A DNA stretch of 64,000 nucleotides, taken from the NCBI GenBank assembly GCA_041651115.1, contig JBAZJY010000003.1, forward strand, positions 194,524-258,523, given 5' to 3'. Shown here in pieces: positions 1 through 20,550 of the stretch. Positions within the stretch are counted from its first letter, which is position 1. Each line of letters begins with the position of its first letter. The position numbers and the translations under genes were made by a program. The stretch comes from Candidatus Omnitrophota bacterium. GTDB lineage: Bacteria; Omnitrophota; Gorgyraeia; Gygaellales; Profunditerraquicolaceae. The notes below the pieces were generated by a model, which saw nothing but the letters and a program-made list of their open reading frames with translations, ran no database searches and was not told the origin of the DNA.

Positions 1-3000
1 ATGGATCAAAGCCATCACATCCTGCAGCTGATCCCGAAAACCGAAAGCCCCGCCGGATTGATAAAAACCGCTTCGCCCCATTAGACGGCAGCTTATAAGC
101 TGATACTGCAACCATCCGTTCACAAGAAAATTTATCGAAGCATCGGACGTTTCCACATACACAACGCCTAAGGTCCGTTTCCAATAATCCCAAACCTTCT
201 CAAGTTCCTGATGCGTCGCATCAATACTGCCAAAACGCCGGACAAGGTCCCGCGCCTCATCCACGGTTTTGCCTGAGCCAAAAGTAAAAACGATCTCTTT
301 CTGCTGGCCATTATCAAGCTCAAATTTGGCCTGTGCAGCAACGCATGGATCAATCCCCGCGCCCACTCTTCCGGAAAGCCTGTCTCTGCGCATGGCAGAA
401 GGCGATGCCATGGTCCCATTTCTTCCGATAAATTCAATCCGGTCTCCGGTAACGAATCGCTTCGGTTCACTTACATCCATAAAAACAACCCTATCCGGAA
501 GTTCTTTGTTATAAGGATTGCGCGCAAACAAAGCTCCGCTTTTAGGATCGATCTCAGTCAAAATATGCATGTGATACTTGTCCCGGAATGTTCCCATAAC
601 CAACTCGCAATAGTCCGTCGCCGAAAGCCGCCTTCGCCGGCCGGAAATATTCCTAATTTTAAGGACCGAGAATTTGACGCGTTCCTCCTGCGAAACAAAA
701 ACCGTTAATTCCGAAACAATCCCGTTTTCAGTATGCTCAAAAACGCTATAGCCAAATCCATGGCGCGAGGTATATTGGGTCTTACCCGTAGCGGGAAGCG
801 GCGTCGGAGACCAGAATCTTCCACTTTCTTCATCGCGAATATAAAGCGCCTCTCCCGAAGCATCCGTAACAGGATCATTCTTACAAGTCGTTAAACGAAA
901 CTCACGCGCATTCTCGCTCCAGGTATAAGCGCTGCCGCTTTCAGAAACCACTGTGCCGAAATTCCGGTTCGCCAACACATTTACCCAGGGAGCGGGGGTA
1001 GTTTTTGAATGTGAAGTCGTGATCACGTATTCCCGGCCATCCCCGGTAAATCCTCCTACGCCATTAAAATAAACAAGATCCGGGCGCTCCGCAAAACCCT
1101 TGTCCTCTTCTTCCGGATCATCTTGCCTAGTCGGAACAAACGGCAGAAAATTCGCCTTTGGGTGCGTCATATCACTCAACTGCTCAGCCAGCGTACCTCC
1201 GCGATCCGAAATAATTATCCGTGCCACCGTTTGCATGAGAATCCGGTCTTCATCTGACATCTGATCGGCGCGCTTTAAAAAAATACCGCCATTCTTCTGC
1301 GCTGTTTCCTTGCTATTGGCAAGGATTAACCCGCTGATTCTTTCCCCCAGACTATCACGATAAATGGAACTATTTTCATTCCATATAATAATATCAACCG
1401 CCAAGCCCTTCATGCGCCAATAAGCATGGGCCTGCAACATCTTAACGACCAGATCGATATTATCCTGATTTTCGATACGCACCAGGACAATCGGCAGGTC
1501 CCCCGAAATACTGTATCCCCAAAGGTCAGACTGGCCGCGGTTATTCCTCCGCAAAATACTCGCGCTCGCCCGCCACGCAGGATTCGCGTACAAAATAGCG
1601 CTTGCAAGCCGGCCGTAAAGTTGGGCGTCGGCTTCCGTAGAATTAATCTGCTGTAAAGCAACCTGCCCGTGAGTCCAGGCTAAATTAAAAACACGGTCAG
1701 CTAAATTCCTATCCCTGTATTTTTCCATGAGCGCTTGCGCGGCTTGCCTGCTTTCGCATATGCCGGTTACATAATCGATCACTGCCGATTCATCCGGCTC
1801 CAATTCAATCTGGCTGCGAATCGAAACAATCGGGTCAAGCACAGAACCCTCGCTATCTGAAAGATGACCGCGGCCATGCATCGCTGCAGGATCAGCCACT
1901 GTGTGCCCTCGCCCGATAAACTTACTGCGTTCTGTTTCATAAGAAGCGCCGACAATGGCATTGCCATGCACCGCCATCAGGTGCAGCATCCAAGGAAACG
2001 CTTCTTTATCCGAACGCGGCCGCCGCTGACAAAGGATCGCCTGATGCGACTTGATAATTTCAGTCTGGACAAACAAATTACTGAATATCCGTTGGGCCTG
2101 ATCGTTTGCGGGATCATTTAATACAACTTCCGCATAACTGGTAATTTCTATAATACGCTTGTTACGTGACCGGTTGGTGATAGTCAGCCGGCGCAGTTCA
2201 ATGTCATCTTCCGGAGAAACCGCAATCTCGGTATGTGTATCGATCTGATAGTCCCGCCGCTTAAACTCCACCCAAGCCTGAGAGAACAAAGCTTCATAAT
2301 GCTTAGGCTTGTTTTGCGTCGGCTGATACGCCGAGGACCAGAACTGGCCGGACTCCACATCCCGGAGATAAATAAAAGTTCCATTATTATCCAATGCAGA
2401 ATCTTCACTCCACCGTGTTACAGCGACATTTTGCCAGCGGCTGTATCCTCCTCCGGAGTTAGTAACCATCACATGGTACCGGCCGTTGGAAAGAGGGTGA
2501 ACTTCAGGCACCGGAGTTTGGGGAGTTGTAAACAGCCGTAAAAGCGTTTCCTTTTCTCCGAATTTCCTAAGCATTCCGGTTACTTCAAAATCATAAAGGA
2601 ACGGTTCGACATTCGGCACTCTCTCTTGAAGAAGAAGTTCAGTAGATTTAAACATGGGGTCCGCAAGAAAACGTCTTTGCATCGGCCGGTCCAAAAGCAC
2701 ATAGGCAAGAGACAACAAGCTCATACCCTGATGATGCGCCATATATGATTTCACGATCGCCCGATTTTCATCCGGAGCAAGGCGCGCCGGCGTGTAATCA
2801 ATGGCTTCGTAAAAGCCGTAGATACCTCCGGCTCCTTCTTCGAATAAACGCTCGAGATTCTTACAGGCCTTCTCCGGCTCCACCATTAAGGCAAGCATCG
2901 AAGCATACGGAGCCACAACCAGATCTTCGGCAAGCCCCCGCTTAAAACCCATGTCCGGGACTCCAAAAGAGTGATATTGATAAATCCTGCTAGCGTCAAC

Positions 3001-6000
3001 CTTATTGTAACCGGACTCTGATATACCCCAGGGAATATTATTTTTGGCCGCATAACGGATCTGGCCGCTAACCGCTGCTTTATATGTCTGGTCCAGCACG
3101 CTTCCTTCGTAGTTCGGCATTACCAAAAGGGGCATGAGATATTCAAACATCGACCCGCCCCAAGAAACCAAAACAGGGTCTCCTTCTACTTTTGCGATCA
3201 TCCGGCCAAGCTTAAACCAATGATCCTGCGGCATTCTTCCTTGAGCAATCGCGACAAAACTGCAAAACCTGGCTTCGGACGCCAGAAGGTCATAACAACC
3301 GGGGTCCACCTTGTGTTCGCTGACATTGTATCCGATAGAAAGAAGGTCCGTACTCTTGTCATACAAAAATTCATATTCAACGCTGGAGATTTCGTTGCAC
3401 CGTAACACGATATAATCGATCGCTTTGATCCTTTCGGCGGACCGTGTCCCGGCTTCTTTGATTGCATCGCGAAGTTTCAATAACCATCCATGCAATCCTC
3501 TCGACTCATCGTCCACAAGAGATATATCCGTCATAATTTTCTCAATCAAAGGAACCAGCATCTGCTCCAGCCTTGCCACTTCCCCAAGCGTAGGGATCTC
3601 ATCTAAATTCCGTAGAGCCTCCCGAAGTTGAACAAGTCGCGCCTGCTGTTCATTATCGCCTGCGTCCCACATCCCCGGCATTTCCGGCGCAAGCAATATC
3701 CAAGGCGCAATATAAGACATGTCTTCCAAAAAGTCGTAACACTGCCGCTCCAAGGCGCGCGCCCAAATTCTGCCTTGCTCATAATGCTTATGATCCGACC
3801 CGGAAAAAACTTTTGAAACATCCTTTGAAAGCTGGCGCAAAAATGCGTAGATCTCCGAAAGACAAACGGAAGTAATTTTCCTTTTTTCCTGAAATTGCGC
3901 GATCCTTTCAGAAATTTCTCGAAAGAACCCGGCGACACTGCTCTTTTGGCTTCTCTCAATCTCCGCGACGCTCTGATGCAGGATCTGCAGGGTATCTTCC
4001 AGCCCGTCGAATATCTTAACAGAAACGATCTTCTGAGAATTCATTTCCGCCAGCCCGGAGCGCAAGATCATTAAATGGCCGGTCAAGTTTCCGCTATCTA
4101 CCGATGAAACATAAAGAGGCTCCAAAGGTTTAAGCGTCTCTGTATCATACCAGTTGTAAAAATTACCCCGATACCTTTGCATAAGATTTAAGGTATCGAA
4201 TGTTTTTTCCGTCCTGTTAAACATCATCCCCATCGAAACATAACCAAAATCGTAGGCTGTCAAATTAGCAAGAAGCGACAGGCCGATATTCGTTGGTGAA
4301 GTCCTATGGGCCAATGCGCTGACAGGCTCCTCCTGAAAATTGTCTAGCGGCAGCCAATGATCCTTTTCGGTAACAAAATTCTCAAAGAACGCCCAGTTCT
4401 TCCGGGCAAAACTCCTGAGAAAAATAATTTGCTCTTTGGAAAGCATGATCTTGCGGGCAGGAGAAGACCGGCTGATCCAATAAGCTACTGCGGGAGAAAC
4501 AAACCACAGGCTTAATAGAACCAGGGCAAGCGCGTCGAAGCGCGGGAAAAATACCGTAAAACAGATTAACAGCAAAACAGCGGTAATCGGTTCAAACAAG
4601 ATATTCTTGTAACAGCTTAGAATATTATTCGGCAAAAAAGCTTCCGCTTCGAAGAAAGTCGTCCATTTCAGCAAATTTCTTCGCGATACAAACATCCTCC
4701 ACAAAGTCCGCGTGATCGCATCCAGACAATAGAAAAATTCATGCAGTAAAAAAACAAGCGAAAAGAAAAACCGGAGTGCGTTCCTTTTAAATAATGACAC
4801 TACCAATCTAAAATGGGTTATAAAAGTAAGGGTTTTGGGTTTTCTCACGGCCTCCGACAGGGACATCGGCACAAGGGGGAAACCGAGAAGAGCAATGACG
4901 AGAGCCGACCACATCCAGGAGGGTTGAAAAAATATCCATCCTGATAAAAGCAGCAAAACTATTGCTAAAGGAACTACGCTGCGCCTTAAGTTATCCGCGA
5001 TCTTCCACTGCGACAAGAAAGAAATCGGGTTTTTTGCTTTTGCGCCGCCGAGGACGCGAACGGAACTGAATAACCAGGGAATGATCTGCCAATCCCCGCA
5101 GATCCAACGGTATCTCCGGCTCAAATCCTTAAGATATCCTGACGGGTATTTTTCGTAAAATTGGACATCCGTCACAAGCCCTGACCGGGCATAACAACCT
5201 TCTAAAAGATCATGGCTCAATATAGAATTTTCCGGAAAACGGCCATCCATGGATCTTTCGAACGCATCCACATCATAAAGCCCCTTCCCGACAAAAGACC
5301 CTTCAAGGAAAAGATCCTGGTAAACATCAGACACCGCTTTGGTATAAGGATCGATTCCTATATCGCCTCCGAAAATTTTCACGAATAGCGAAGGATTTTC
5401 CCCGGGATAGCCGGATTCGACTCTGGGCTGGAGAATCCCGTACCCGGAAACAACCCGTTGTTTTTTTTCGTCATAGACCGGCCGGTTCAAGGGATGCTCT
5501 ATCACGCCCACGAGTTCTCGCGCGGCGTTGCGCGACATCCAGGTATCCGCATCCAAAGTAATGACATATTTAACGTCCTGAAGCCTCTGGGGATCACCGA
5601 TGATCGCGCTGAAACGCCCTTCGCCTTTTCCGCGAAGAAATGCGTTTAAATCCCCTATCTTGCCACGCTTACGTTCGTACCCCATCCATACCTTTTCATT
5701 TTTATTCCACTTGCGGGGCCTATGAAAAAAATAAAAAACGTACTCTTTTTGCCTACGGTATTTATAATTCAACTGCTCGATACCTTCCATAACCTGAGCC
5801 AGAAGCGCTTGATCCTCAGGCATCTTTTCCTGCGCTGCATCAGAAAAATCCGTTAAAAGCGCAAAATCCGTATTGGCGTCAATATTCGCAAGATAACGGA
5901 CCTCTAACCCTTCGAGAAGTGATTCAACCGTCCGCGCATCGCTAATTATACAAGGGACTACGACCAGTGTATGCGCATAAGCAGGAATTCCTTCTGAAAA

Positions 6001-7470
6001 GTCCATCCGGGGAAGGCCCTGGGGGGTAACGAGCATCATAGAAAACCAATTCACCAGAGAAACCGCCGTTTGGCTTGCCGTAAGCAAAAGTAATAACCCA
6101 AATAAAATTTGCCAAGGCAGGGTCAAGACCCCAGCCAACTCTACCCAGTTCAAAATAACTGCGGGTACGACAAAGGTTATAAAGATAATGGAACCAAAAT
6201 ACAAAACAGACGGCCAAAAAGTTTTTTTCGCCGGTAGATACTGAAAGACGGGTAAACGCAGGCCCAATTCGCGGTAGAAAAGCTCTAATCCCCGATCGAT
6301 AAGGTAAAAACCTACATGCGCTGTGGCGTGAGCGGAGCCTTTTTCCGTTTTTGCCGTTTTCGCCATCCGGATCGCAAGTGCCGCAATTTCTTCTTCATTA
6401 ATTTTGCTTCTCAAAGAAAGCTTCTCAACAACATGCCGATAGCGGTCTCGTGTAGCAAAAGACATGCGACTATAATCCCCTGACGGGTCCTGGCCCAAAA
6501 TCTTTTCAACAACACTGATGGTTTCAACAAAACCATGCCAATCAGTGGTCTCTAAAAAACGCAGGCTCCCGATCGTGTTGGCAATCGAAACCTGGTCCTC
6601 CGCCTGTTTTTGGCTAGTCGCCCGGATTATCCTGTCAAGGGTCTCTCCTTGCTCCAAAAGCTTCTTTTCCAGCCAGGCAAAAGGAAGATTGAGCGCCTGG
6701 CTTTGACCATGTAAACGCCGCGTGAATTCCGCGACAAAAGCTTCAGAAAGCAACGGGTTGGCTCTAGACATCGCCGCAATTTCAATGATCACGCCATCAG
6801 TATCTTTAACCGAAACTTTCAGGATCCGCGTCGCCCAGTAATTCGCTTTTTCTCTTTCCGATTGCGCTACGATTAACCGGGAAGAAACGCGCCTTAAGTT
6901 TTCAATAAGAGCTAACCTTAACATAATAGGGATAGCCCACAATTCGCCAAGTTTTAAGTGCTTAAGACTCTGGTAGGCTGTAACAAACTCCAAAAGCCTC
7001 TGACTATCCAGCCGCCCGTCGCTGTGAGAAACAAAATCCATGGCAATCGCATAAACGCGAGGATAACCGGCAAGCGGCCCCTGGAGAAGATAGGGTAACT
7101 GGCGGATATATTTTTCCGGAAGGTGCTTCTGAGCGAGCCTTATTTGCTCCTCAATGAGGTAATAATTATCGAGAAGCCATTCTCCTGCCGGCGAAATCTT
7201 TCGTTTGGATTTACCGGCATCATTGAGGAGCTCATAGATTTCAGCAAGCATTTTTTCATTATTCTTCAGCCTGATTAAAAGCCTGTTGCGCCCCCTTTTG
7301 TAACTGACCAGGTGCCCCTGGGCCAGTTTTTTCGCATGAGCCTTAAACTGCTCAATATTAAAAAGCTCGGCGCGAAGAGGCTGTTCCTCGACGATCCTAT
7401 TCCAATGCAGAACGGCGCTGAGACGCATTTTAAAAAGCAAAATATAGTCTTGAATAAATTTTAGAGACAA
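1..7470 (-). CDS. Cyclic beta-1,2-glucan synthase-like giant protein (GT84-type glycosyltransferase domain plus C-terminal GH94-like domain). It is partial: the C-terminus lies beyond position 1. The start is TTG at 7470 (GGAGG 6 nt upstream) or ATG at 7428.
   Basis: My manual translation of the minus strand from ATG 7428 reads uninterrupted to position 1 (2476 codons) and the frame ends exactly on codon 3..1; the whole region should be re-translated computationally. The gene is absent from the ORF track because it has no stop in the window. The translation shows an N-terminal domain, TM helices, a GT domain with ITLDADTWMS (DxD), more TM helices, and a long C-terminal glycoside phosphorylase-like region. 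Confidence 0.6.
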   Translation of the reverse strand, partial: MSLKFIQDYILLFKMRLSAVLHWNRIVEEQPLRAELFNIEQFKAHAKKLAQGHLVSYKRGRNRLLIRLKNNEKMLAEIYELLNDAGKSKRKISPAGEWLLDNYYLIEEQIRLAQKHLPEKYIRQLPYLLQGPLAGYPRVYAIAMDFVSHSDGRLDSQRLLEFVTAYQSLKHLKLGELWAIPIMLRLALIENLRRVSSRLIVAQSEREKANYWATRILKVSVKDTDGVIIEIAAMSRANPLLSEAFVAEFTRRLHGQSQALNLPFAWLEKKLLEQGETLDRIIRATSQKQAEDQVSIANTIGSLRFLETTDWHGFVETISVVEKILGQDPSGDYSRMSFATRDRYRHVVEKLSLRSKINEEEIAALAIRMAKTAKTEKGSAHATAHVGFYLIDRGLELFYRELGLRLPVFQYLPAKKTFWPSVLYFGSIIFITFVVPAVILNWVELAGVLTLPWQILFGLLLLLTASQTAVSLVNWFSMMLVTPQGLPRMDFSEGIPAYAHTLVVVPCIISDARTVESLLEGLEVRYLANIDANTDFALLTDFSDAAQEKMPEDQALLAQVMEGIEQLNYKYRRQKEYVFYFFHRPRKWNKNEKVWMGYERKRGKIGDLNAFLRGKGEGRFSAIIGDPQRLQDVKYVITLDADTWMSRNAARELVGVIEHPLNRPVYDEKKQRVVSGYGILQPRVESGYPGENPSLFVKIFGGDIGIDPYTKAVSDVYQDLFLEGSFVGKGLYDVDAFERSMDGRFPENSILSHDLLEGCYARSGLVTDVQFYEKYPSGYLKDLSRRYRWICGDWQIIPWLFSSVRVLGGAKAKNPISFLSQWKIADNLRRSVVPLAIVLLLLSGWIFFQPSWMWSALVIALLGFPLVPMSLSEAVRKPKTLTFITHFRLVVSLFKRNALRFFFSLVFLLHEFFYCLDAITRTLWRMFVSRRNLLKWTTFFEAEAFLPNNILSCYKNILFEPITAVLLLICFTVFFPRFDALALVLLSLWFVSPAVAYWISRSSPARKIMLSKEQIIFLRSFARKNWAFFENFVTEKDHWLPLDNFQEEPVSALAHRTSPTNIGLSLLANLTAYDFGYVSMGMMFNRTEKTFDTLNLMQRYRGNFYNWYDTETLKPLEPLYVSSVDSGNLTGHLMILRSGLAEMNSQKIVSVKIFDGLEDTLQILHQSVAEIERSQKSSVAGFFREISERIAQFQEKRKITSVCLSEIYAFLRQLSKDVSKVFSGSDHKHYEQGRIWARALERQCYDFLEDMSYIAPWILLAPEMPGMWDAGDNEQQARLVQLREALRNLDEIPTLGEVARLEQMLVPLIEKIMTDISLVDDESRGLHGWLLKLRDAIKEAGTRSAERIKAIDYIVLRCNEISSVEYEFLYDKSTDLLSIGYNVSEHKVDPGCYDLLASEARFCSFVAIAQGRMPQDHWFKLGRMIAKVEGDPVLVSWGGSMFEYLMPLLVMPNYEGSVLDQTYKAAVSGQIRYAAKNNIPWGISESGYNKVDASRIYQYHSFGVPDMGFKRGLAEDLVVAPYASMLALMVEPEKACKNLERLFEEGAGGIYGFYEAIDYTPARLAPDENRAIVKSYMAHHQGMSLLSLAYVLLDRPMQRRFLADPMFKSTELLLQERVPNVEPFLYDFEVTGMLRKFGEKETLLRLFTTPQTPVPEVHPLSNGRYHVMVTNSGGGYSRWQNVAVTRWSEDSALDNNGTFIYLRDVESGQFWSSAYQPTQNKPKHYEALFSQAWVEFKRRDYQIDTHTEIAVSPEDDIELRRLTITNRSRNKRIIEITSYAEVVLNDPANDQAQRIFSNLFVQTEIIKSHQAILCQRRPRSDKEAFPWMLHLMAVHGNAIVGASYETERSKFIGRGHTVADPAAMHGRGHLSDSEGSVLDPIVSIRSQIELEPDESAVIDYVTGICESRQAAQALMEKYRDRNLADRVFNLAWTHGQVALQQINSTEADAQLYGRLASAILYANPAWRASASILRRNNRGQSDLWGYSISGDLPIVLVRIENQDNIDLVVKMLQAHAYWRMKGLAVDIIIWNENSSIYRDSLGERISGLILANSKETAQKNGGIFLKRADQMSDEDRILMQTVARIIISDRGGTLAEQLSDMTHPKANFLPFVPTRQDDPEEEDKGFAERPDLVYFNGVGGFTGDGREYVITTSHSKTTPAPWVNVLANRNFGTVVSESGSAYTWSENAREFRLTTCKNDPVTDASGEALYIRDEESGRFWSPTPLPATGKTQYTSRHGFGYSVFEHTENGIVSELTVFVSQEERVKFSVLKIRNISGRRRRLSATDYCELVMGTFRDKYHMHILTEIDPKSGALFARNPYNKELPDRVVFMDVSEPKRFVTGDRIEFIGRNGTMASPSAMRRDRLSGRVGAGIDPCVAAQAKFELDNGQQKEIVFTFGSGKTVDEARDLVRRFGSIDATHQELEKVWDYWKRTLGVVYVETSDASINFLVNGWLQYQLISCRLMGRSGFYQSGGAFGFRDQLQDVMALIH

Positions 7471-7615: not shown

Positions 7616-8350
7616 CTATTTATCGCGCTTTAGGTTTCTTTCAGCAAACTCCCAATTAATCAATTTATCAATTACTGCCTTCAGGTGGTCGCTGCGCAGG
7701 TTCTGATAATCCAGGTAATAGGCGTGTTCCCACACATCCAGAACCAGGATCGCTTTTCCATTTTTTTGAGAGATCGGATTTTCCGCATTCGCAGTTTTGA
7801 TGATCCTAAGAGTCCCCGCATCTTCGATCAGCCATACCCAACCGCTGCCAAATTGGGCTATGCCTGCTTGGGAAAATTGCTGCACAAAGTTTTCATAACT
7901 GCCGAAGTCAGCCTCGATTTTTTTACCGATCTTTCCCGTAGGCTTACCGCCTCCCTTAGGTGAGAGGCTGTTCCAGTAGAAGTTATGATTCCAAACCTGG
8001 GCTGCATTATTAAAGATAGCTGTCTTATCGGCCTTATCGGCGGTTTTTTCAATCACCTCTTCAAGGGCAAGGCCCACAAACTCAGTGCCTGAAACAAGTT
8101 CATTTAGCTTATTCACATAACCCCGATGATGTTTACCGTAGTGAAAACTCAGGGTTTTCGCGGAAATAACCGGCTGTAAGGCATCTTCTTCATAGGGAAG
8201 CGCCGGCAATACGAAAAGACTTGATTTAACGTCTTCCATCGCCAGGCTCCTTTCCTGGTTAACTTCGGCTTCAGCCTTAATTACCAATATAGGGCAAAAA
8301 AAGATAACATTAAATATAAAAATAATCAATAAAATAAGACTTATTCTCAT
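7616..8350 (-). CDS. sodB: Fe/Mn superoxide dismutase with an N-terminal signal peptide (periplasmic or secreted)
   Basis: 244-aa ORF with motifs [14 protein letters not shown] and DVWEHAYY and a hydrophobic N-terminal leader. Confidence 0.9.
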
Positions 8351-8753
8351 AAAATCCCTCTGCGTCTCTAAGGAAACAGCTTAAATGCACCGCGCCCTGG
8401 GCGACCGAGCCGCAGGCGAGGAAGTCCCTTTAGGGAGGGCGCTCCCACATCTCGCGTGCCCCATTCGCCCCGCTTAGGAGCGGGGCTCATTCGGCGCCAG
8501 CCTTGGCCGGCTGGCTTCTTGCTAATGCAATGCGTGTGCGGCGTGGCCGCCGCTCTACAACAATAGAAGAATCCACGGTCGCGGCGTGCGTCCTCGCTTC
8601 AGCTATCCCTAACCTTAAAAACAAAAATTTTCTTAGGAAAGAAGCTCGGCCGCTTCCCGCTCTACAACCAGAGAAAATCCAGGGTCGCGGGATGCCCCGC
8701 CTCTTGCGGGCAGTGCTTCAAAGAACTGCTTTGGCGGGGCGCGGCCCCCACCC

Positions 8754-8822
8754 CGCGCCCCGCCTAGCGCTATCTTTTCAAAAAACTGGCGAAATTTTTA
8801 GGGGAGGAAAGTCTGTTTACTT
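8754..8822. repeat. GC-rich direct repeat copy A, about 70 bp, roughly 85 percent identical to copy B at 10255-10323
   Basis: cgcgccccgcctagcgctatc(t/c)ttt caaaa..actg(g/c)cg(a/c)aatttttagggg..., preceded by GC hairpin GGGGCGCGG/CCGCGCCCC. Confidence 0.7.
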
Positions 8823-9866
8823 CACTCCTAAAAGTGTACTAACTTTATTTAAATTCATCGCCATATATTTTGCAATAAATGTAATTATGGCACCGACTAA
8901 GGCTATTATCAATCCTGCTAAAATTGAATCCTTATTTTTATCCCAGAATGATCGTTCTCTATCTCCTAAGTAAATTATCGCCTTTGGAAACCAACTTTTA
9001 TAAATTTTAGCTAAGATTAACAACGCCAAAACAGATATTGTAATTAAAGCTACCCTTGCGGTAATAGAATTAATTGATGGCAAAATGACAAGAACAAATA
9101 AAAAAATAATACTGTTAATCATTGGTCCATATTTAGTGAAGAATACTGTAGATTTACTTTTATATCTACTTATGTAATCTTCTATTTCGGCTGCCCTACC
9201 GTTAACCCATGTAGGATTATCTCCGCTAATAGATGCATTGTTATCATCAGCGGGCTTAAAATTAAGATTTACTACTTTATATCCACTCTGTGCGCTAGGC
9301 TCGTTGAATGAGATTGTCATATCGTTTATTATTCTTGGAAGTGCAGTGTCCTTTATAAATGCGTCAAGCCCCATTTTAAAAAAGGATGAACCCCTATAAT
9401 TTATCACAAACGTCGGCTGAACATTCGGAGCTATATCCTTCATCATCAGAGCCAAAAGTCCACCTAATTCTCGTGCATCCATTTTACAAGCCGGTAATTT
9501 AATGGGCTTAGAGATAAAAGCTGTAGGGGCAGGATTTAGAAATACTTCTTTATGTTTGAACAGGTGCAATGTTCCTTTAGTGCCGATATCAGTGCTCCAT
9601 TCTCCTTTTATTTCTTCTCCTGATTCTCCTATTTCTCCTTTCAAATTTGCTGATTTTGGATTACCTTCTGTATTTGGCGTAAAATCAAAAACTTTGCCAG
9701 TAAATTTATTATCTTTTATTTCTAATTCTAGTTTACCGTTTAAGTTTTGGTATTTAATATCATGAATAAAAAACGACCCTTCAGTTTTACCTTCTTTTTC
9801 TTGAAGATCCAAAACGCATTGCCCTTTATTTGTACCATCAATAATGCCGATCCATTTACCTTTCAT
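8817..9866 (-). CDS. Hypothetical protein with an N-terminal soluble domain of about 235 aa and three C-terminal TM helices, encoded in an AT-rich cassette
   Basis: 349-aa ORF; strongly AT-rich compared with its surroundings; C-terminal hydrophobic helices; I recognise no known family. Confidence 0.55.
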   Translation of the reverse strand: MKGKWIGIIDGTNKGQCVLDLQEKEGKTEGSFFIHDIKYQNLNGKLELEIKDNKFTGKVFDFTPNTEGNPKSANLKGEIGESGEEIKGEWSTDIGTKGTLHLFKHKEVFLNPAPTAFISKPIKLPACKMDARELGGLLALMMKDIAPNVQPTFVINYRGSSFFKMGLDAFIKDTALPRIINDMTISFNEPSAQSGYKVVNLNFKPADDNNASISGDNPTWVNGRAAEIEDYISRYKSKSTVFFTKYGPMINSIIFLFVLVILPSINSITARVALITISVLALLILAKIYKSWFPKAIIYLGDRERSFWDKNKDSILAGLIIALVGAIITFIAKYMAMNLNKVSTLLGVK

Positions 9867-9917
9867 AGTTTCACCTCTTTGTTCTATTCATCAACAAATA
9901 ATTCTGCCTCTATTTTT

Positions 9918-10217
9918 TTATTTCCTCATGAATAATCTTAATAAAATATCTATCAATGCTGCCAAAGCTATTATTGCAGTCAAACAAAGATTAATTCTTG
10001 AAAGTTTTTCGTTAGATTTTGACAACTTTTCATTAGATTTCTGCATTTTCTCTGTTTGCAAACACAACGCTTCTTTTAAAATTGCGATTTCACTACTTAA
10101 GAATCTGATGCTTTTGGATTGCAGAACTGCTTCGGCGGGTGAAGCACTTGTTGGATCAGTAACCCTAGAAAGGAGCTCTTCTATTTCATCAATTGACATT
10201 TTAGCTAAATTATTCAT
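9918..10217 (-). CDS. Small hypothetical protein with coiled-coil character, an internal EKLSKSN repeat and a single C-terminal TM helix
   Basis: 99-aa ORF with AAGGAG 5 nt upstream of its ATG; directly upstream of 8817..9866 in the same orientation. Confidence 0.5.
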   Translation of the reverse strand: MNNLAKMSIDEIEELLSRVTDPTSASPAEAVLQSKSIRFLSSEIAILKEALCLQTEKMQKSNEKLSKSNEKLSRINLCLTAIIALAALIDILLRLFMRK

Positions 10218-10254
10218 TTATTCTCCTTTTTTACTGCTTGTGCGCGACTGGGTA

Positions 10255-10323
10255 CGCGCCCCGCCTAGCGCTATCCTTTCAAAATACTGCCGCAATTTTT
10301 AGGGGGAAGAAATTGTTACTTTT
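10255..10323. repeat. GC-rich direct repeat copy B (partner of 8754-8822); in minus orientation it carries the RBS/promoter region of the 99-aa gene
   Basis: Alignment to copy A; preceded by hairpin GCGCG actgggta CGCGC. Confidence 0.7.
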
Positions 10324-10653
10324 CAAAAAATTCGAAAATATAAAATTTTTATTTCACACAAACATAGAAATTCTACAATCAGGCCAATAAAGAATCGTTT
10401 TTTCGTCTTTTTTGACGAACCCTCTAATAGGACCATCTTGTGAAAGCACAAAAGAAACAGCACCATAAAAATCACCTATAAAATCTATAGCAGAATTATG
10501 CCTTCTACCAAAGACGCTCGTATTAAGTTCTTGCCGAGCTGTGCAACATATTCACGAAACAGCGAAAATGGCGGATTAGTCACAACAATATCAGCTTCTT
10601 TGAGTAGCTCAATACATTCCACCCACATCGTCGAAAACCGAGGAAATAAAAAA

Positions 10654-10733
10654 TGGGGTGGCTGACGGGGATCGAACCCGCAAAACCTCTAGAGCCACAG
10701 TCTAGCGCTCTGACCAATTGAGCTACAGCCACC
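10654..10733 (-). tRNA. tRNA-His (anticodon GTG) with encoded G-1 and CCA
   Basis: Reverse complement reads G-GTGGCTG TA GCTCAATTGGTCAGAGC ... CTGTGGC loop ... TTCGATC ... CAGCCAC C CCA. Confidence 0.85.
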
Positions 10734-10740
10734 ATATTTA

Positions 10741-11199
10741 CTATGAGTGGAGAATAGCGTGGCAATTACAACATATTCTTTCTAAATTATCAATTTTATT
10801 ATTTTTTCTGTTTCCATCTTTATGATGGACAACTAAGACTCGCTTATCGGGAATCCCGCACCTATTACATTTATATGGAATATTATATCTGCGCATTAAA
10901 TCACGATAAGCAGTTTCTCCGGAAATCCAATTTGGGGCATTAACACCATAACGGACATTTCTATTTTCCCAAGAACAATGACAAGCTACGCCACAAAAGA
11001 ATTTATTTCTTTTTGATCTCTTAAAGTCTTTAGGAGTCCTCCAAACTTTTTTCCCGCAATAAGCACATTCAACCCATTTACCTTTAAATTGAGCCTTGGT
11101 TCGACATTTTATAGAACAATATTTACCCCACCCTTTTCTTGCATGAAAAGGTTTTATATAGAATTCCTTACCGCAAATTTTACACTTTTTGTTAGGCAC
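10741..11199 (-). CDS. HNH endonuclease with multiple CxxC zinc-ribbon motifs
   Basis: 152 aa; C-terminal VVHHKDGNRKNNKIDNLERICCNCHAILH matches the HNH motif. Confidence 0.8.
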   Translation of the reverse strand: MPNKKCKICGKEFYIKPFHARKGWGKYCSIKCRTKAQFKGKWVECAYCGKKVWRTPKDFKRSKRNKFFCGVACHCSWENRNVRYGVNAPNWISGETAYRDLMRRYNIPYKCNRCGIPDKRVLVVHHKDGNRKNNKIDNLERICCNCHAILHS

Positions 11200-12524: not shown

Positions 12525-12598
12525 TGCGCCTGGGCCGAATCGAACGGCCAACCTACGGCTTAGAAGGCAGTTGCTCTATCCATTTGAGCTACAGGCGC
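12525..12598 (-). tRNA. tRNA-Arg (anticodon TCT)
   Basis: Cloverleaf: acceptor GCGCCTG/CAGGCGC, D-arm GCTC..GAGC, anticodon loop CTTCTAA, T-arm GGCCG TTCGATT CGGCC. Confidence 0.8.
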
Positions 12599-12640
12599 AT
12601 TGCTATCTATCCTCCCGCCAGAAAGCGGCGGGATTAGTTC

Positions 12641-12690
12641 GGCCATACAACTTAGCTTCGCTATCGCTAGCTAAGTTGTGGCCTCACTTA
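12641..12690. repeat. Conserved hairpin element (ggccatacaacttagc...gctaagttgtggcc); a homologous copy lies at 51420-51468
   Basis: Inverted repeat acaacttagc/gctaagttgt flanked by ggcc; about 80 percent identical to the element beside tRNA-Lys. Confidence 0.6.
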
Positions 12691-12710
12691 ATTTGAGCTA
12701 CAGGCGCATT
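12691..12710. repeat. 20-bp exact direct repeat of the tRNA-Arg 5' end (copy of 12582-12601)
   Basis: atttgagctacaggcgcatt occurs twice, 109 bp apart. Confidence 0.8.
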
Positions 12711-12711
12711 C

Positions 12712-13182
12712 TTACTTAATTATAAATTCATTGGAATTGACGGTCAGCCATTTCCAATCTTCTGATGAAGCACTGTTTCTAATCTGATAGGAAACTACAA
12801 GGCGATATGTGCCTGGATCTGCCTTGATACTTTTTTCGGTTCCATCAATATAGATCAGCGGATCCCATTCATAAGTATTGGACTCTCCGGATTTCATTTC
12901 TTCAGGAGGGCCGATATCGCGTATGCAATGGGGATACTGACAGTACGTAAACAATTTCTCCCAATTTCCGGATGAAGTTTTTTTCTCGGCATAACGAATG
13001 CCAAAGCCTGAGCTCGTGCCGCCAATATGGGAAAAAATACTCTGCGTTGAATTATTTTTTAAAGTTATCTTTACGGATTCTCCTTGCGAATACTCAAGTT
13101 TATCAGTGGTTACCGTCGCTTCCTGCGCCCAGGCGCAGGTAAAAAATAAGATAAGAGATAAAATTGCTATTATGAACTTCAT
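12712..13182 (-). CDS. Secreted hypothetical protein
   Basis: 156 aa with signal peptide MKFIIAILSLILFFTCAWAQEA. Confidence 0.5.
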   Translation of the reverse strand: MKFIIAILSLILFFTCAWAQEATVTTDKLEYSQGESVKITLKNNSTQSIFSHIGGTSSGFGIRYAEKKTSSGNWEKLFTYCQYPHCIRDIGPPEEMKSGESNTYEWDPLIYIDGTEKSIKADPGTYRLVVSYQIRNSASSEDWKWLTVNSNEFIIK

Positions 13183-13191
13183 ATTTTTAAA

Positions 13192-13269
13192 TGGTCGGGG
13201 CGACAGGACTTGAACCTGTGACCTCTTGCTCCCAAAGCAAGCGCTCTAGCCAAACTGAGCCACGCCCCG
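13192..13269 (-). tRNA. tRNA-Pro (anticodon TGG) with the bacterial C1-G72 pair and encoded CCA
   Basis: Acceptor CGGGGCG/CGCCCCG, anticodon stem CTTGC/GCAAG with loop TTTGGGA, T-loop TTCAAGT. Confidence 0.85.
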
Positions 13270-13316
13270 CTAGTCTTAACTACAAGTGGCGAAATCCTCG
13301 CGCTTTATGCGGGGAT

Positions 13317-13333
13317 GAGCCACGCCCCGCTAT
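13317..13333. repeat. 17-bp direct repeat of the tRNA-Pro 5' end (copy of 13256-13272)
   Basis: tgagccacgccccgcta occurs twice, 61 bp apart. Confidence 0.75.
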
Positions 13334-13379
13334 TTTTCCGTCAGGTGGCGCTCCATAACTTATGGCCTCATTCATTATA

Positions 13380-13994
13380 TCAACCGCTCTTCGTCCGCTC
13401 AATACATTTCTCTAAAATCTTCCTTGCTTTTTCCAAGGCGTGGTAGCGGTGGCTCATTTTATGTTTTACCCGGATGCCGAGCTGGGCAAAAGTCTTTTTG
13501 TATTTAGGTATGACAAATAACGGGTCGTAGCCAAAGCCGGCTGTGCCCTCTTGTTTAAAACCGATCAGGCCGCTGCATCTTCCTTCTACAACTCCGATCA
13601 GGCCCCTTGCATCGGCAATTGCCACAGCGCAGGCATAATATGCCTTGCGCTTTTTAAGCGGCACTGCCTCCAGCATTTTCAGGAGCTTCAAATTATTCTG
13701 CAGGTCGCTTTTATTTTTACCGGAAAACCGCGAAGAATAAACTCCCGGCTTGCCTTCTAAAGCCTCAACGCACAAGCCGGAATCTTCGCCAAGGGTCAGT
13801 TTCTTGGTAAAGCGGGCGATCTTCACTGCCTTCTTGATAGCGTTCGCCTTAAAGGTCTTTCCGTTTTCAATGATCCGCGGCGCAGCAGGATGATCTGCCA
13901 AAGAAGACAGCTTTGCGCCTAAGCCTGCCAATATCTCTTTTATTTCTTTCAGTTTTTTACGGTTCTTTGTCGCAACTACCAACTCAAAGCTCAT
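13380..13994 (-). CDS. rdgB: Non-canonical purine NTP pyrophosphatase (dITP/XTP pyrophosphatase, Ham1/RdgB family)
   Basis: 204 aa with typical family length and motifs; directly downstream of rph. Confidence 0.8.
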   Translation of the reverse strand: MSFELVVATKNRKKLKEIKEILAGLGAKLSSLADHPAAPRIIENGKTFKANAIKKAVKIARFTKKLTLGEDSGLCVEALEGKPGVYSSRFSGKNKSDLQNNLKLLKMLEAVPLKKRKAYYACAVAIADARGLIGVVEGRCSGLIGFKQEGTAGFGYDPLFVIPKYKKTFAQLGIRVKHKMSHRYHALEKARKILEKCIERTKSG

Positions 13995-13995
13995 A

Positions 13996-14715
13996 TTAGA
14001 CGGTAATCACGCTGCTAAGCATATTTTTCTGGACAGCGATCAGCTCGTTAATGCCTTTTGTTGCCAGATCAAGCAGCTGATCCATTTGTTCTTTCTTAAA
14101 AGTGCGGCGTTCGGACGTTCCCTGTATCTCAATGAATTCGCCTTTGGAGGTCATGACGATATTCATATCCACGTCTGCTTTGGAGTCCTCTTCGTAGTTC
14201 AAGTCCAGGATCGGCTCGCCGTTAAAAATGCCCACGCTTACAGCAGCGACAAAATCCTTGATCGGGACGCTAAAGATCAAGCCGCTTTTCTTGATCTTAT
14301 ACAACGCGTCAGCCAAGGCAACAAAACTGCCGGTTATGGAAGCAGTACGCGTGCCGCCGTCACCCTGGATCACGTCGCAGTCAAGCCAAATGGTGCGCTC
14401 ACCCATGTTTCTCATATCGGTTACCGCGCGAAGTGACCTGCCCACCAGCCGCTGTATTTCATAGGTGCGGCCGGAATCTTTTCCGCGGGGAATACGCGAC
14501 TGGCAGGAACGCGGAAGCATGCCGTATTCGGCAGTAACCCAGCCTGTACCGGAGCCTTTTAAAAACGGCGGAACACTTTCTTCAATGGTTGCACTGCAAA
14601 TGACTTTGGTATTTCCCATTTCAATCAAGCAAGAGCCTTCCGCGTATTTCAGGAAATTACGCGTAATATTTACGCTCCTAATCTTATCCCAACCTCTTCC
14701 GTCTGCGCGTGCCAT
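13996..14715 (-). CDS. rph: Ribonuclease PH
   Basis: 239 aa; RNase PH-like sequence ([17 protein letters not shown]). Confidence 0.85.
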
Positions 14716-20115: not shown

Positions 20116-20150
20116 ACCACCAAATTTTTGCTTGTCGCAAAAATTTGGTG
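20116..20150 (-). terminator. Perfect 15-bp-stem hairpin (ccaccaaatttttgc ttgtc gcaaaaatttggtgg) overlapping and following the tmRNA 3' end; a probable terminator
   Basis: Inverted repeat seen directly in the sequence; a second GC hairpin (gcgcggc ttgtc gccgcgc) at 20086-20104 shares the same loop. Confidence 0.5.
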
Positions 20151-20550
20151 GAGGTGGCGGCATTGAAGCCGCGTCCCTAAGTAGACAAGTAAAAGCCGCT
20201 ACATGCTTAGCCCCGCATTTTTACCTTGCGTTTGCAACTCCTGCGGGGCAGGATTTACAAACCGCAGCCCTTAGAGCTCCTCGCCCCGGCAACAAAGGCC
20301 AATTTGCCGAGGCCAGCCTGCTAAGTGCTCTATTTCATCCCACAGGCAGGACGAATAGAGGCTTCACGCTTAATTAAGCGCGAAGGCTGGTATGAACGCT
20401 GGTCTCGCGGTTAAAGGCGAAACCATTGTTCCCGCTAAACGGTTGCTTGTGTTTGCGTTTATATTGTGCAAGGATTGTTAACGCGGCCTACCCTGCGTCC
20501 GCGGCATGCTGCTCTTACCCGACTATCTTAAGTCGAGCCCTTTCACCCCC
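20146..20550 (-). ncRNA. ssrA: tmRNA (ssrA) immediately downstream of smpB
   Basis: 5' end GGGGGUGAAAGGGCUCGAC...GCAUGCCGCGG (PK1-like). 3' end GGACGCGGCUUCAAUGCCGCCACCUCCACCA, close to the E. coli tmRNA terminus. The acceptor pairs GGGGGUG/CACCUCC, including a G3.U70 wobble. The resume region AUAAACGCAAACACA resembles E. coli AUAGUCGCAAACGAC; the candidate tag reading frame is ANTSNRLAGTMVSPLTARPAFIPAFALN*, which is uncertain. Confidence 0.8.

Follow-up and report, generated by a model that had tools for sequence, protein, structure and literature searches.

A modular, hairpin-rich family of intergenic repeats from Candidatus Omnitrophota that lies where accessory cassettes meet core genes

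The GC-rich non-coding block that precedes sodB in the window (the whole 64-kb stretch of DNA that was analysed) is one copy of a previously undescribed, hairpin-rich family of intergenic repeats, about 330-450 nt long and restricted to Candidatus Omnitrophota, a widespread, uncultivated phylum. Seventeen related copies were found in Candidatus Omnitrophota MAGs and metagenome contigs, and the compared loci (designated by L numbers) show that the typical site is the point where an accessory cassette meets a core gene, in the gap between two co-directional genes. The locus in the window is organized as follows.

7616-8350, minus strand: sodB, Fe/Mn superoxide dismutase, the downstream core gene, with a signal-peptide-like N-terminus
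8363-8804, no strand assigned: whole element, described in its plus form; the gene-sense orientation is the reverse complement
8817-10217, minus strand: accessory cassette of two ORFs between the two copies of module D
8817-9866, minus strand: 349-aa membrane protein, no Pfam family
9918-10217, minus strand: 99-aa coiled-coil ORF, no Pfam family
10485-10732, minus strand: far side of the variable region, with an EcoRI-methylase fragment (10485-10628) and tRNA-His (10654-10732)

The initial annotation, made from the sequence letters, had described a GC-rich non-coding block before sodB, and this is confirmed, with 66-73% GC at 8363-8804 versus 45% in the genome. Between 8355 and 8795 the GC content reaches 0.66 in 200-nt windows and 0.73 in 100-nt windows, against a 64-kb average of 0.453, and 8363-8804 is the sole non-coding GC island of the 64 kb, the remaining GC-rich spots being coding. 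Perfect GC hairpins had also been reported, and three are present (8467-8474/8479-8486, 8496-8502/8509-8515 and 8733-8744/8753-8764). The reported pair of repeats of about 45 bp keeps its 107-nt period but not its length of 43-45 nt, as the similarity spans only 35 nt (31 of 35 nt identical between 8550-8584 and 8657-8690, E = 3.7e-6, BLAST within the window). Moreover, a direct repeat of 51 nt had been missed, which is found at 8754-8804 and 10255-10305 (92% identical, E = 6e-16). The fold of the block is more stable than that of dinucleotide shuffles on each strand (z = -3.1 on both). The flanking gaps are short, with 13 nt to the sodB ATG and 12 nt to the stop (8817) of the 349-aa ORF; GAGGG at 8356-8360 is the ribosome-binding site of sodB, and the element abuts this site and the start codon. 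The N-terminal extension of sodB is covered by homologues of 240-250 aa.

The modules of the element follow one another in the order M1, P1, optional P2, P3, a four-way junction (P-long, U1, Pc and U2), T and D, with no strand assigned to any of them.

8364-8386: M1 (GTCTCTAAGGAAACAGC) and then an AT-rich box, conserved in most copies
8392-8442: hairpin P1 (GCGCCC/GGGCGC), which closes an optional 39-nt insertion (8398-8436)
8467-8486: hairpin P2, optional, with three perfect stem versions
8496-8515: hairpin P3, in the versions GCCAGCC/GGCUGGC, GGCAGCC/GGCUGCC and GCCCCGC/GCGGGGC
8540-8701: four-way junction domain, covariance model R1, 165.9 bits in the window
8540-8547/8694-8701: P-long, junction helix
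8550-8584 (helix 8548-8553/8581-8586): U1 arm, the first of the two units of the initial annotation, with a 6-bp stem and a 27-nt A-rich loop
8588-8599/8642-8653: Pc helix, which encloses the AT-rich centre 8613-8641
8657-8690 (helix 8655-8660/8687-8692): U2 arm, the second of those units, with five stem versions
8733-8764: terminal hairpin T (CCCCCACC), with 12-bp perfect arms and an 8-nt loop
8754-8804: module D, copy 1, the T 3' arm plus an AT-rich tail, up to 98% identical to the D of L126 and L010
10255-10305: module D, solo copy, 38 nt upstream of the ATG of the 99-aa ORF

The family was delimited by an nhmmer profile built from 9 copies, which matched 8363-8810 (E = 6e-111) as well as 16 further sites in loci of Omnitrophota. 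The 17 copies comprise pattern-scan matches confirmed by BLAST or nhmmer, one viral-contig match and look-ups of sodB homologues; among the pattern-scan matches, 9 of 120 in metagenomes and 2 of 26 in genomes were true copies, and the others were chance matches in GC-rich DNA. Four loci are named as Candidatus Omnitrophota MAGs, and the SodB of the window is 100% identical to an NCBI Omnitrophota MAG protein. A scan of 185,579 species genomes with a strict 23-base pattern located a single site in each of just two Omnitrophota genomes. This 64 kb holds one copy and one solo tail; L031, in contrast, has 3-4 copies or pieces within 15 kb. The initial annotation had proposed an Rfam scan of the block and a search for other copies. 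The former matched no family: at gathering thresholds only tRNAs and the tmRNA of the 64-kb window were recovered, and at E <= 10 the sole overlap in 8200-10700 was R1162 antisense RNA on T, at chance level (20.7 bits versus a threshold of 55). The latter found the sequence conserved in other Omnitrophota, yet in few copies rather than many dispersed ones. The element had no BLAST match among 50,697 phage and 72,556 plasmid records. In viral contigs the D pattern gave 0 matches, one junction pattern gave 4 chance matches in high-GC contigs and another junction pattern gave one true copy, L152. Searches of full-text papers turned up no account of such an element, or of non-coding elements in Omnitrophota.

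The copies differ by whole modules, which have been swapped, deleted or duplicated between them; P2 and the P1 insertion are optional, and there are two T forms and two tails. The AT-rich box reads TTAAAT in the window and TATAAT, TAAAAT or TTTAAT elsewhere. The P1 stem is present in 16/16 full copies, with a different version in L152 (GUCCGCC/GGCGGAC); its insertion is common to the window, L018 and L125, and L014 carries another one. P2 occurs as GCCCCGCU/AGCGGGGC, GGCUUCUG/CAGAAGCC or GGCCCCUG/CAGGGGCC and is missing from short copies. Most copies have GGCGUGGC/GCCCCGCC as P-long; L031 and L155, the two loci in which a long perfect hairpin takes the place of U1 (an arm nearly invariant in 13 copies), have GGCGCAGC/GCUGCGCC. 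The U2 stems are UCCCGC/GCGGGA, CCCGCC/GGCGGG, GCCGCU/AGCGGC, AGCGCC/GGCGCU and AUGCCGC/GCGGCAU, and the version that resembles U1 is limited to the window, L152 and one L031 piece. The arms of T are perfect over 12-13 bp across copies, and in at least 10 of them T has a different stem and the loop GUGCGGG, of which the T loop of the window is approximately the reverse complement. Two L031 copies share an identical 3' part of about 100 nt and have unlike 5' modules, and a deletion has shortened another L031 copy (5382-5668) so that its P-long and the hairpin that replaces U1 make up one continuous 22-bp hairpin. In close relatives, where sodB is 92% identical at the nucleotide level, the element aligns only at 8364-8401 and 8504-8543, and a different subtype is found at a shifted position; homology to the sodB locus of one relative, L155, ends exactly at 8363. 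It should be mentioned that GAGGAAGUCC (8416-8425) resembles the P4 region of RNase P, a likeness that was dismissed because the site lies in the optional insertion and no RNase P model matched.

On the other hand, parts of the element are very similar in distant genomes. A comparison of the window with L044 gives about 80% identity for the element and 87% for tRNA-His, while the DUF748 orthologues share 34% amino acid identity; between genomes at that distance D reaches 98%. This similarity implies either frequent horizontal spread or a constraint far stronger than an mRNA stabilizer needs, and it speaks against the role in mRNA proposed below.

Comparison of the aligned copies shows that the stems are maintained through compensatory changes, and this covariation supports a structured-RNA character for the predicted helices. 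Junction pair cells are paired in 90.2% of cases, versus 35-54% when the partners are slid. Twelve of the 29 junction pairs have changes on both sides, which was matched by 0/500 shuffles, and the junction covariation score is 0.218 versus 0.136 +/- 0.012 in shuffles. Model R1 matches 15 further copies besides the window, and P1, P2, P3, U2 and T each occur in several perfect stem versions. RNAalifold on a MAFFT alignment gave similar energies on both strands and missed U2 because this alignment places the U2 stems out of register; therefore, per-copy folds, the shuffle test and the covariance model were used instead.

The orientation of the element relative to its neighbours is nearly constant. 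Leaving out the spurious overlapping ORFs of the automatic listing, the neighbouring genes are antisense to the plus form in 14/15 cases on the 5' side and 7/9 on the 3' side, the exceptions being L152 and the 3' side of one L031 copy. The tight fit of the window copy, with its gaps of 12 and 13 nt, recurs between ahpC and sodB in L159. The minus strand has more G than C and the more stable fold in 10/12 copies. However, the large loops are A/C-rich on the plus strand, G.U cells outnumber A.C cells there by 24 to 4 in a model-fitted alignment that is itself biased towards this strand, and an AT-rich, TAnnnT-like box stands 5-7 nt before P1 in 11/16 copies; the G.U excess, the loops and the TATAAT-like box all point to the plus strand and against minus-strand transcription. 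A mismatch test on Watson-Crick-only folds (7 A.C versus 0 G.U on the plus strand) was discarded because the sites fell in spurious small helices. Neither a canonical sigma-70 promoter nor an intrinsic terminator was found in or beside the element, the scan not rising above shuffle expectation. The terminator scan gave one weak site within the element (P3, plus strand) and zero at T or P1, a count below that of shuffles. Since no promoter or terminator was found, the RNA-level role proposed below would lack a recognizable signal.

The genes that flank the copies vary and often belong to restriction-modification, toxin-antitoxin or abortive-infection systems, among them four DNA methylases, a TdeIII endonuclease, a type I restriction-modification system, AbiE, HigBA, a DndB-like protein and an OLD-like ATPase. 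Related copies precede, among others, genes for ribonucleotide reductase, CorA, a TehB-like methyltransferase, a permease, toxin-antitoxin proteins and a serine recombinase. For the 349-aa protein only 8 homologues were found among 5.8 billion clusters, with restriction-modification and toxin-antitoxin genes as neighbours there.

Module D is also found alone between cassettes, in the window, in L010 and three times in L126, where it lies at 2848, 4457 and 5533 between co-oriented genes. The solo D of the window starts at the border of the T loop and the T 3' arm, and that of L010 lies on the 5' side of a full copy. Furthermore, other pieces of the element occur at gene borders: a partial copy (P1, M1 and an upstream module M0) directly follows the sodB stop in L158 and L159, a two-gene cassette separates a U1 piece from a U2-T-D part in L031, and in L165 a restriction-modification module with a homologue of the 349-aa protein is bounded by inverted repeats of about 120 nt with a T-like hairpin. 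We found no support for joint movement of the 349-aa cassette and D, as homologues of the 349-aa gene in L162-L164 have no D. The block had also been suggested to be the scarred boundary of the adjacent island; the core/accessory junction and the tail repeated across the cassette agree with this, but the element is conserved and is not a scar.

Regarding these data, the reading that we prefer, which we hold to be quite possible though short of probable, is that of a BIME/BOX-like mosaic intergenic repeat which acts as structural punctuation in read-through mRNA and contains a recombination-prone cassette joint at T/D. The element would be carried on a read-through or polycistronic transcript, corresponding to the minus strand of the window. 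It could work in cis as punctuation, shielding the 3' end of the upstream message and, by analogy with REP/BIME, BOX and Correia elements, insulating the downstream gene from read-through or attenuating it. The palindromic T and the D tail may serve as DNA joints for the gain, loss and exchange of cassettes, which would explain the second D copy at 10255-10305.

Other explanations have been weighed against this one. Of the sRNA or riboswitch-like element suggested in the initial annotation, a riboswitch or leader of sodB is not supported, as related copies precede unrelated genes. A sodB-specific 5' leader, sensing for example metal or redox, would fit the position against the ribosome-binding site and start codon, and copies are found near ahpC and sodB in L155, L158 and L159. 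However, the L155 element precedes a 161-aa gene and ahpC, not sodB; the sodB loci L153, L154, L157, L160 and L161 have no copy; and the sodB-linked copies differ in module content. Diversity of the downstream genes largely refutes this explanation, which is scarcely credible. It is also unlikely that the element is a stand-alone gene for a large structured ncRNA, read from the plus strand, with a start immediately after the TTAAAT/TATAAT box at P1, an end at T/D and the D copies as 3' fragments displaced by island integration, as at tRNA and tmRNA genes. The covariation, the four-way junction, the plus-strand signatures of loops, G.U pairs and box, and a conservation comparable to that of the tRNA (window versus L044) argue for such a gene, and so does the 3'-end direct repeat at the distal cassette edge. 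Moreover, the A-run of the U1 loop and the U-run of the Pc loop could pair: only the window and L014 carry a G within the A-run, and in these two copies the U-run contains a C. Against it, neither a -35 element nor a terminator was found, and in nearly every case the gene would be antisense to both neighbours and on the lagging strand, an uncommon placement for RNA genes that are expressed. No space would remain for a sodB promoter in the window and L159, and the lower folding energy belongs mostly to the opposite strand. The shifted subtype in close relatives, the cluster of copies and fragments in L031 and the T loop flipped between subtypes do not favour it either.

A further possibility, which we regard as doubtful, is that a cassette-capture system uses the element, or at least T and D, as its attachment site. 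Cassettes in circular form, lacking an integrase and bearing the T 3' arm and D, would recombine at the chromosomal site through a recombinase encoded elsewhere, with two candidates: a tyrosine recombinase that would recognize a lox-like 12-7/8-12 site, and an HUH enzyme that nicks hairpins. Repeated events would build tandem cassette arrays beside the element. The D-cassette-D arrangements of the window and L126, with all genes co-oriented, are consistent with this, as are the start of each solo D at the border of the T loop and 3' arm, the perfect inverted arms of T around an asymmetric 7-8-nt loop, the near identity of D across very distant genomes and the L165 module between its inverted repeats. 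The T loop of the window type is roughly the reverse complement of the GUGCGGG form, and in the L031 piece this loop is inverted with respect to that of the window; the orientation of the other modules does not change, and this suggests a flip at the DNA level. The L044 copy has a large serine recombinase immediately on its 5' side. Nevertheless, it is the sole recombinase among the families listed for the fetched loci, with no IntI or tyrosine recombinase beside any copy, and there is no integrase within the cassettes bracketed by D. Direct reading of the D sequences in either orientation showed neither of the integron core motifs, RYYYAAC and GTTRRRY. T has a conserved loop and variable arms, the opposite of a sequence-specific recombinase site, the 6-bp stems of U1 and U2 with their 27-nt loops are not DNA cruciform material, and neither the D-less homologues of the 349-aa gene, which also have no element nearby, nor the 5' position of the L010 solo D agrees with capture at this site. 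Finally, an improbable but more far-reaching version would make the family a new, Omnitrophota-specific class of large ornate structured nucleic acid (about 330-450 nt), whose four-way junction has a loop-loop contact and whose lox-like T and 51-nt tail dock the cassettes of a hitherto undescribed capture system. Such a system would gather defence genes that have no integrase of their own beside core genes, as a functional analogue of the integron made from different parts.

Known repeats and RNAs resemble the element in part. REP/BIME sequences are likewise intergenic mosaics of GC-rich palindromic units and short motifs in either orientation, often after stop codons and transcribed with neighbouring genes, as would be the case here; P2, P3 and T are palindromic, modules are optional or swapped, and the T loop occurs in both orientations. 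However, REP units are 35-40 nt, with hundreds of species-specific copies, whereas the element measures 330-450 nt, has a co-varying four-way junction and 6-bp stems closing loops of about 27 nt, shows near-identical modules across genomes with 34%-identical orthologues and has no sequence similarity to REP/BIME. Tens to hundreds of copies per genome were not found, and no RAYT (IS200/IS605-like) transposase appeared among the best 25 families listed for 46 neighbouring proteins. Thus the REP-like character raised in the initial annotation holds for a dispersed, modular, palindrome-rich intergenic family, but its large size, junction, low copy number and wide conservation depart from it. BOX elements of Streptococcus pneumoniae (boxA, repeated boxB and boxC) are also modular with variable module number, and both BOX and the Correia elements (NEMIS) of Neisseria lie between genes, have stable predicted RNA structure and are thought to affect expression or mRNA processing of their neighbours; they differ in their 100-300 nt and about 100 or more copies per genome. 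The low copy number of the element, unlike that of REP, BOX and Correia, weighs against the punctuation reading. Clear terminal inverted repeats and TA target duplications mark the Correia elements. The ends of the element, compared for these traits of a MITE, share only 8-10 nt (GTCTC(CC)TAA-like), at best a weak inverted repeat, and the "empty" ahpC-sodB spacer in L155 revealed no target duplication around the copies of the window and L159.

Integron attC sites and CALINs share with the element co-oriented, promoter-poor cassettes, often of defence or toxin-antitoxin genes, beside a larger fixed platform, and with D a conserved repeat of about 55 nt with partial dyad symmetry that separates cassettes. 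The element differs in its lack of the core motifs, of extrahelical-base architecture and of a nearby IntI, its cassettes are transcribed towards the platform rather than away from it, and homologous cassettes elsewhere have no D. As at tRNA and tmRNA integration sites, the 3' part of the element, about 51 nt, is directly repeated at the distal cassette border, starting in the loop of a symmetric stem-loop as in anticodon-loop or T-loop crossovers, but the cassettes carry no integrase, the element is itself multi-copy, mosaic and apparently mobile, and the solo D of L010 is on the 5' side of the full copy. GOLLD, ROOL, HEARO/omega RNA and OLE are likewise GC-rich islands of several hundred nt with many co-varying stems, often in variable or mobile regions near tRNA genes; the element matches none of their Rfam models, has no conserved partner protein and swaps and deletes modules far more freely.

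The family thus provides an alignable, co-varying element that marks the borders of defence and accessory cassettes, with parts nearly identical in very distant genomes. Variable regions in Omnitrophota MAGs can usefully be located by it, and it explains why assemblies break at this place, several contigs ending within a copy. Should it act as RNA, it would join the few large structured RNAs of bacteria whose function is unknown, as a further candidate; should it be a recombination platform, it would illustrate how these bacteria can assemble defence islands without local integrases.

The GC-rich noncoding block that the initial annotation had noticed upstream of sodB was confirmed. The GC content of positions 8355-8795 rose to 0.66 when averaged over 200 nt and to 0.73 over 100 nt, versus 0.453 overall, and these positions constitute the only non-coding GC-rich island of the 64 kb, since the remaining GC-rich spots lie within genes. 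The block folds more stably than its shuffled versions (z = -3.1 on either strand), and the three hairpins already described (8467-8486, 8496-8515 and 8733-8764) are all perfect. Furthermore, the 51-nt end of the block (8754-8804), whose repetition had been overlooked, recurs at 10255-10305 with 92% identity. The genes of this region are the following:

1-7428, minus strand, giant ORF cut by the window start
7616-8350, minus strand, sodB
8817-9866, minus strand, 349-aa ORF
9918-10217, minus strand, 99-aa ORF
10485-10628, minus strand, 47-aa EcoRI-methylase fragment
10654-10732, minus strand, tRNA-His

The element is separated by 12 nt from the upstream stop and by 13 nt from the sodB ATG, and the sodB ribosome-binding site GAGGG is located at 8356-8360, so there is no space for a separate sodB promoter. 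Both here and in locus L159 (L numbers denote the other loci compared, from MAGs and metagenome or viral contigs), the element occupies almost the whole intergenic gap.

Concerning the surrounding genes, the frame at 1-7428 has at least 2,494 codons and runs past the window start; judging by its N-terminal translation, it may be a giant protein of the glycan phosphorylase or glucan-synthase type. The Fe/Mn superoxide dismutase carries a hydrophobic N-terminal extension of ~37 aa, and the retention of this extension in many 240-250-aa homologues makes export of the enzyme probable; NCBI annotates the protein of the same genome from an internal Met (207 aa). The EcoRI-methylase fragment adjoins the 3' end of tRNA-His, with a 152-aa HNH_3 ORF on the opposite side of the tRNA. 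This stretch (10485-11199) looks like a decayed island at tRNA-His, of which the entire 8805-10653 region may be the remnant. At 20146-20550 (minus) lies a tmRNA whose tag peptide, ANTSNRLAGTMVSPLTARPAFIPAFALN, is unusually long.

In the '+' orientation, the element is organized as follows:

8364-8380, M1 (GTCTCTAAGGAAACAGC), followed by an AT-rich hexamer, together a conserved lead-in
upstream of M1 in many copies, extra module M0, repeating GTCTCTAA
8392-8442, hairpin P1
8467-8486, hairpin P2, optional
8496-8515, hairpin P3
8540-8701, four-way junction of P-long, U1, Pc and U2
8540-8547 paired with 8694-8701, P-long
8548-8586, U1 arm
8588-8653, Pc, with an AT-rich stretch inside
8655-8692, U2 arm
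8733-8764, hairpin T, perfect, 12-13 bp
3' of T, AT-rich tail

P1 encloses an additional 39 nt in the window, L018 and L125, and another insertion in L014. The tandem repeats of the initial annotation are truly similar (8550-8584 and 8657-8690 share 31 of 35 nt at a spacing of 107 nt), but these units are the junction arms U1 and U2. Since the stem and loop of U2 differ from those of the window in most relatives, the direct repeat is peculiar to the window, L152 and one L031 piece.

The fold is supported by stems that changed while remaining perfect, with three versions for P2, three for P3, five for U2 and two for T. The U2 stems (UCCCGC/GCGGGA, CCCGCC/GGCGGG, GCCGCU/AGCGGC, AGCGCC/GGCGCU and AUGCCGC/GCGGCAU) are each improbable by chance, being matched by a fraction of 0.003-0.05 of shuffles per copy. 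A covariance model of the junction recovered and aligned 16 copies, where 90.2% of pair cells were standard, versus 35-54% with partners slid by 1-3 columns; both sides had changed in 12 of the 29 pairs, and the covariation score was 0.218 against 0.136 +/- 0.012 in shuffles, none of the 500 scoring as high. These figures are biased towards the model to which the alignment was fitted, and the slid controls and the independent folds of each copy are concordant with them. Moreover, P-long GGCGUGGC/GCCCCGCC is replaced by GGCGCAGC/GCUGCGCC in L031 and L155, and in a short L031 copy lacking Pc and U2, P-long and the adjoining hairpin form one perfect 22-bp stem. The A-run of the U1 loop includes a G in the window and L014 alone, and in both copies the U-run of the Pc loop includes a C, pointing to a possible loop-loop contact between the two runs. 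Stems of 6 bp with ~27-nt loops cannot be DNA cruciforms; hence, it is one strand that folds, as RNA or as transient single-stranded DNA.

The shared-unit pattern matched 120 loci of the metagenome collection, mostly by chance, although nine of them match the block over 200-385 nt with an identity of 77-87%. A stricter pattern against one genome per species matched two Candidatus Omnitrophota MAGs, and a further copy was found on an IMG/VR contig. Look-ups of sodB homologues added four copy-bearing loci, two of them named Omnitrophota MAGs, and the SodB of the window is a 100% match to a protein of an NCBI Omnitrophota MAG. Altogether, the nhmmer profile found 17 full or partial copies, only one of them in the window. 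The Rfam scan suggested by the initial annotation returned no family at gathering thresholds or at E <= 10, nothing similar appeared in phage and plasmid collections, and full-text literature searches found no paper describing the element. We place it among the structured interspersed intergenic repeats, with a small but appreciable probability that it represents something more distinctive.

Across copies, modules may be missing, exchanged or doubled. Two L031 copies 7 kb apart have an identical 3' part of ~100 nt and unlike P1, P2 and P3. A cassette of two genes (94 and 109 aa), which may be a HEPN/MNT-like pair, is located between a lone U1 piece and a U2-T-D part at L031 693-1673, and it recurs in L102 directly on the 5' side of a complete copy. 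In the closest relatives, L155 and L156, sodB is 92% identical in nucleotides, up to exactly window position 8363; their element is a different subtype, located ahead of a 161-aa gene and ahpC, not directly ahead of sodB. In L158 and L159 the element separates ahpC from sodB, whose stop is followed by a partial copy (P1, M1, M0). Despite this shuffling, conservation is striking: the window and L044 have ~80% of the element in common, with only 34% amino-acid identity between their DUF748 orthologues, and certain D tails are 98% identical across genomes.

Tail D, which consists of the 3' arm of T and ~40 nt of AT-rich sequence, occurs on full copies and alone (window 10255-10305; three in L126, spaced 1.1-1.6 kb, each between co-oriented genes; one in L010). 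Every solo D starts at the border between the T loop and 3' arm. T has perfect 12-13-bp arms around a 7-nt loop, GUGCGGG, which recurs on two unrelated perfect stems; this loop is replaced by CCCCCACC, a near reverse complement, in the window, L044, L126, L018 and L159. In one L031 piece the loop is flipped back while the orientation of D is unchanged, a pattern resembling a DNA-level flip of a palindrome. Restriction-modification genes and a 75% homologue of the window 349-aa gene are found on the 5,043-bp JGI contig L165, which ends in perfect ~120-nt inverted repeats (1-120 and 4924-5043) containing a T-like hairpin, GTGGCGGGCGTG-GGTGCGGG-CACGCCCGCCAC. Either inverted copies bound a module here, or such repeats affected the assembly; other homologues of the 349-aa gene have neither D nor the element close by. 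A 17-nt match with one mismatch (AGAACTGCTTYGGCGGG) links 8722-8738 and 10123-10139, 32 nt ahead of the first D copy and 132 nt ahead of the second, within the start of the 99-aa ORF; chance (E = 0.29) could account for this match, or it could be left over from an older duplication.

Flanking genes vary among copies. One flank is usually core-type (sodB, ribonucleotide reductase, CorA, a TehB-like methyltransferase or a permease), and the other is accessory, with type I and type II restriction-modification, TdeIII endonuclease, AbiE, HigBA, a DndB-like protein, an OLD-like ATPase and, by sequence reading, a putative HEPN/MNT-like pair and putative DUF262-like and SIR2-like proteins. In L044, a 482-aa large serine recombinase gene (12566-14086) overlaps the 3' end of tRNA-His by ~25 nt, ~360 nt from the 5' end of the element, and is the sole recombinase seen beside any copy. 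Excluding spurious overlapping ORFs of the automatic listing, the neighbours are antisense to the '+' form in 14 of 15 cases 5' of the element and in 7 of 9 cases 3' of it; L152 and one flank of a single L031 copy are the exceptions. The flanking genes are thus co-directional, with the reverse complement of the element in their sense.

Besides this geometry and orientation bias, the gene-sense (minus) strand is favoured by folding energies below those of '+' in 10 of 12 copies, by G exceeding C and by tandem G.A mismatches in Pc, read directly from the sequence, instead of U.C. The '+' strand is favoured by its A/C-rich large loops, by a TATAAT-like box directly ahead of P1 in 11 of 16 copies and by 24 G.U cells versus 4 A.C, a count from a model-fitted alignment that itself favours '+', several of the cells belonging to helix termini or to the misregistered U2. 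Neither strand showed a canonical promoter or terminator.

Regarding the nature of the element, the riboswitch option of the initial annotation, as a sodB leader, is refuted by the varied downstream genes and by sodB loci without the element. Its REP-like option survives in part, since the mosaic of palindromes is shared with REP/BIME but the copy number is not; by their defining features, the element is neither an integron attC site nor an intrinsic terminator. As to MITEs, its ends share only GTCTC(CC)TAA-like stretches of 8-10 nt, and comparison with the ahpC-sodB spacer of L155 showed no target duplication around the window and L159 copies. Our preferred reading, held at somewhat less than even probability, is that the element belongs with the mosaic intergenic repeats such as REP/BIME, BOX and Correia. 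As part of read-through transcripts it would serve as structural punctuation, and reshuffling would occur at palindromes that would double as cassette joints. This covers the modularity, the orientation rule, the tight intergenic fit, the partial copies past stops and the solo D copies, but leaves the low copy number, the elaborate four-way junction and the very high conservation between distant genomes harder to account for.

A recombination platform dedicated to integrase-less cassettes, as suggested where D copies bracket accessory genes, is less probable but a credible rival. A stand-alone large noncoding RNA gene on the '+' strand, with its 3' end as the integration site, is a second credible rival of somewhat lower probability; the TATAAT-like box lies on that strand, and the orientation bias points to the other. 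These readings and the mosaic repeat are not mutually exclusive.

Finally, L091 contains a second GC-rich block of ~260 nt (4540-4800) directly after a gene stop. It is more distant, and only short modules (GCAAGAAGCGAGCGGCC.GGCGAG and CCCTAAAGGAACTTCC) are common to it and the family, so that a wider superfamily of such elements may exist in Omnitrophota.
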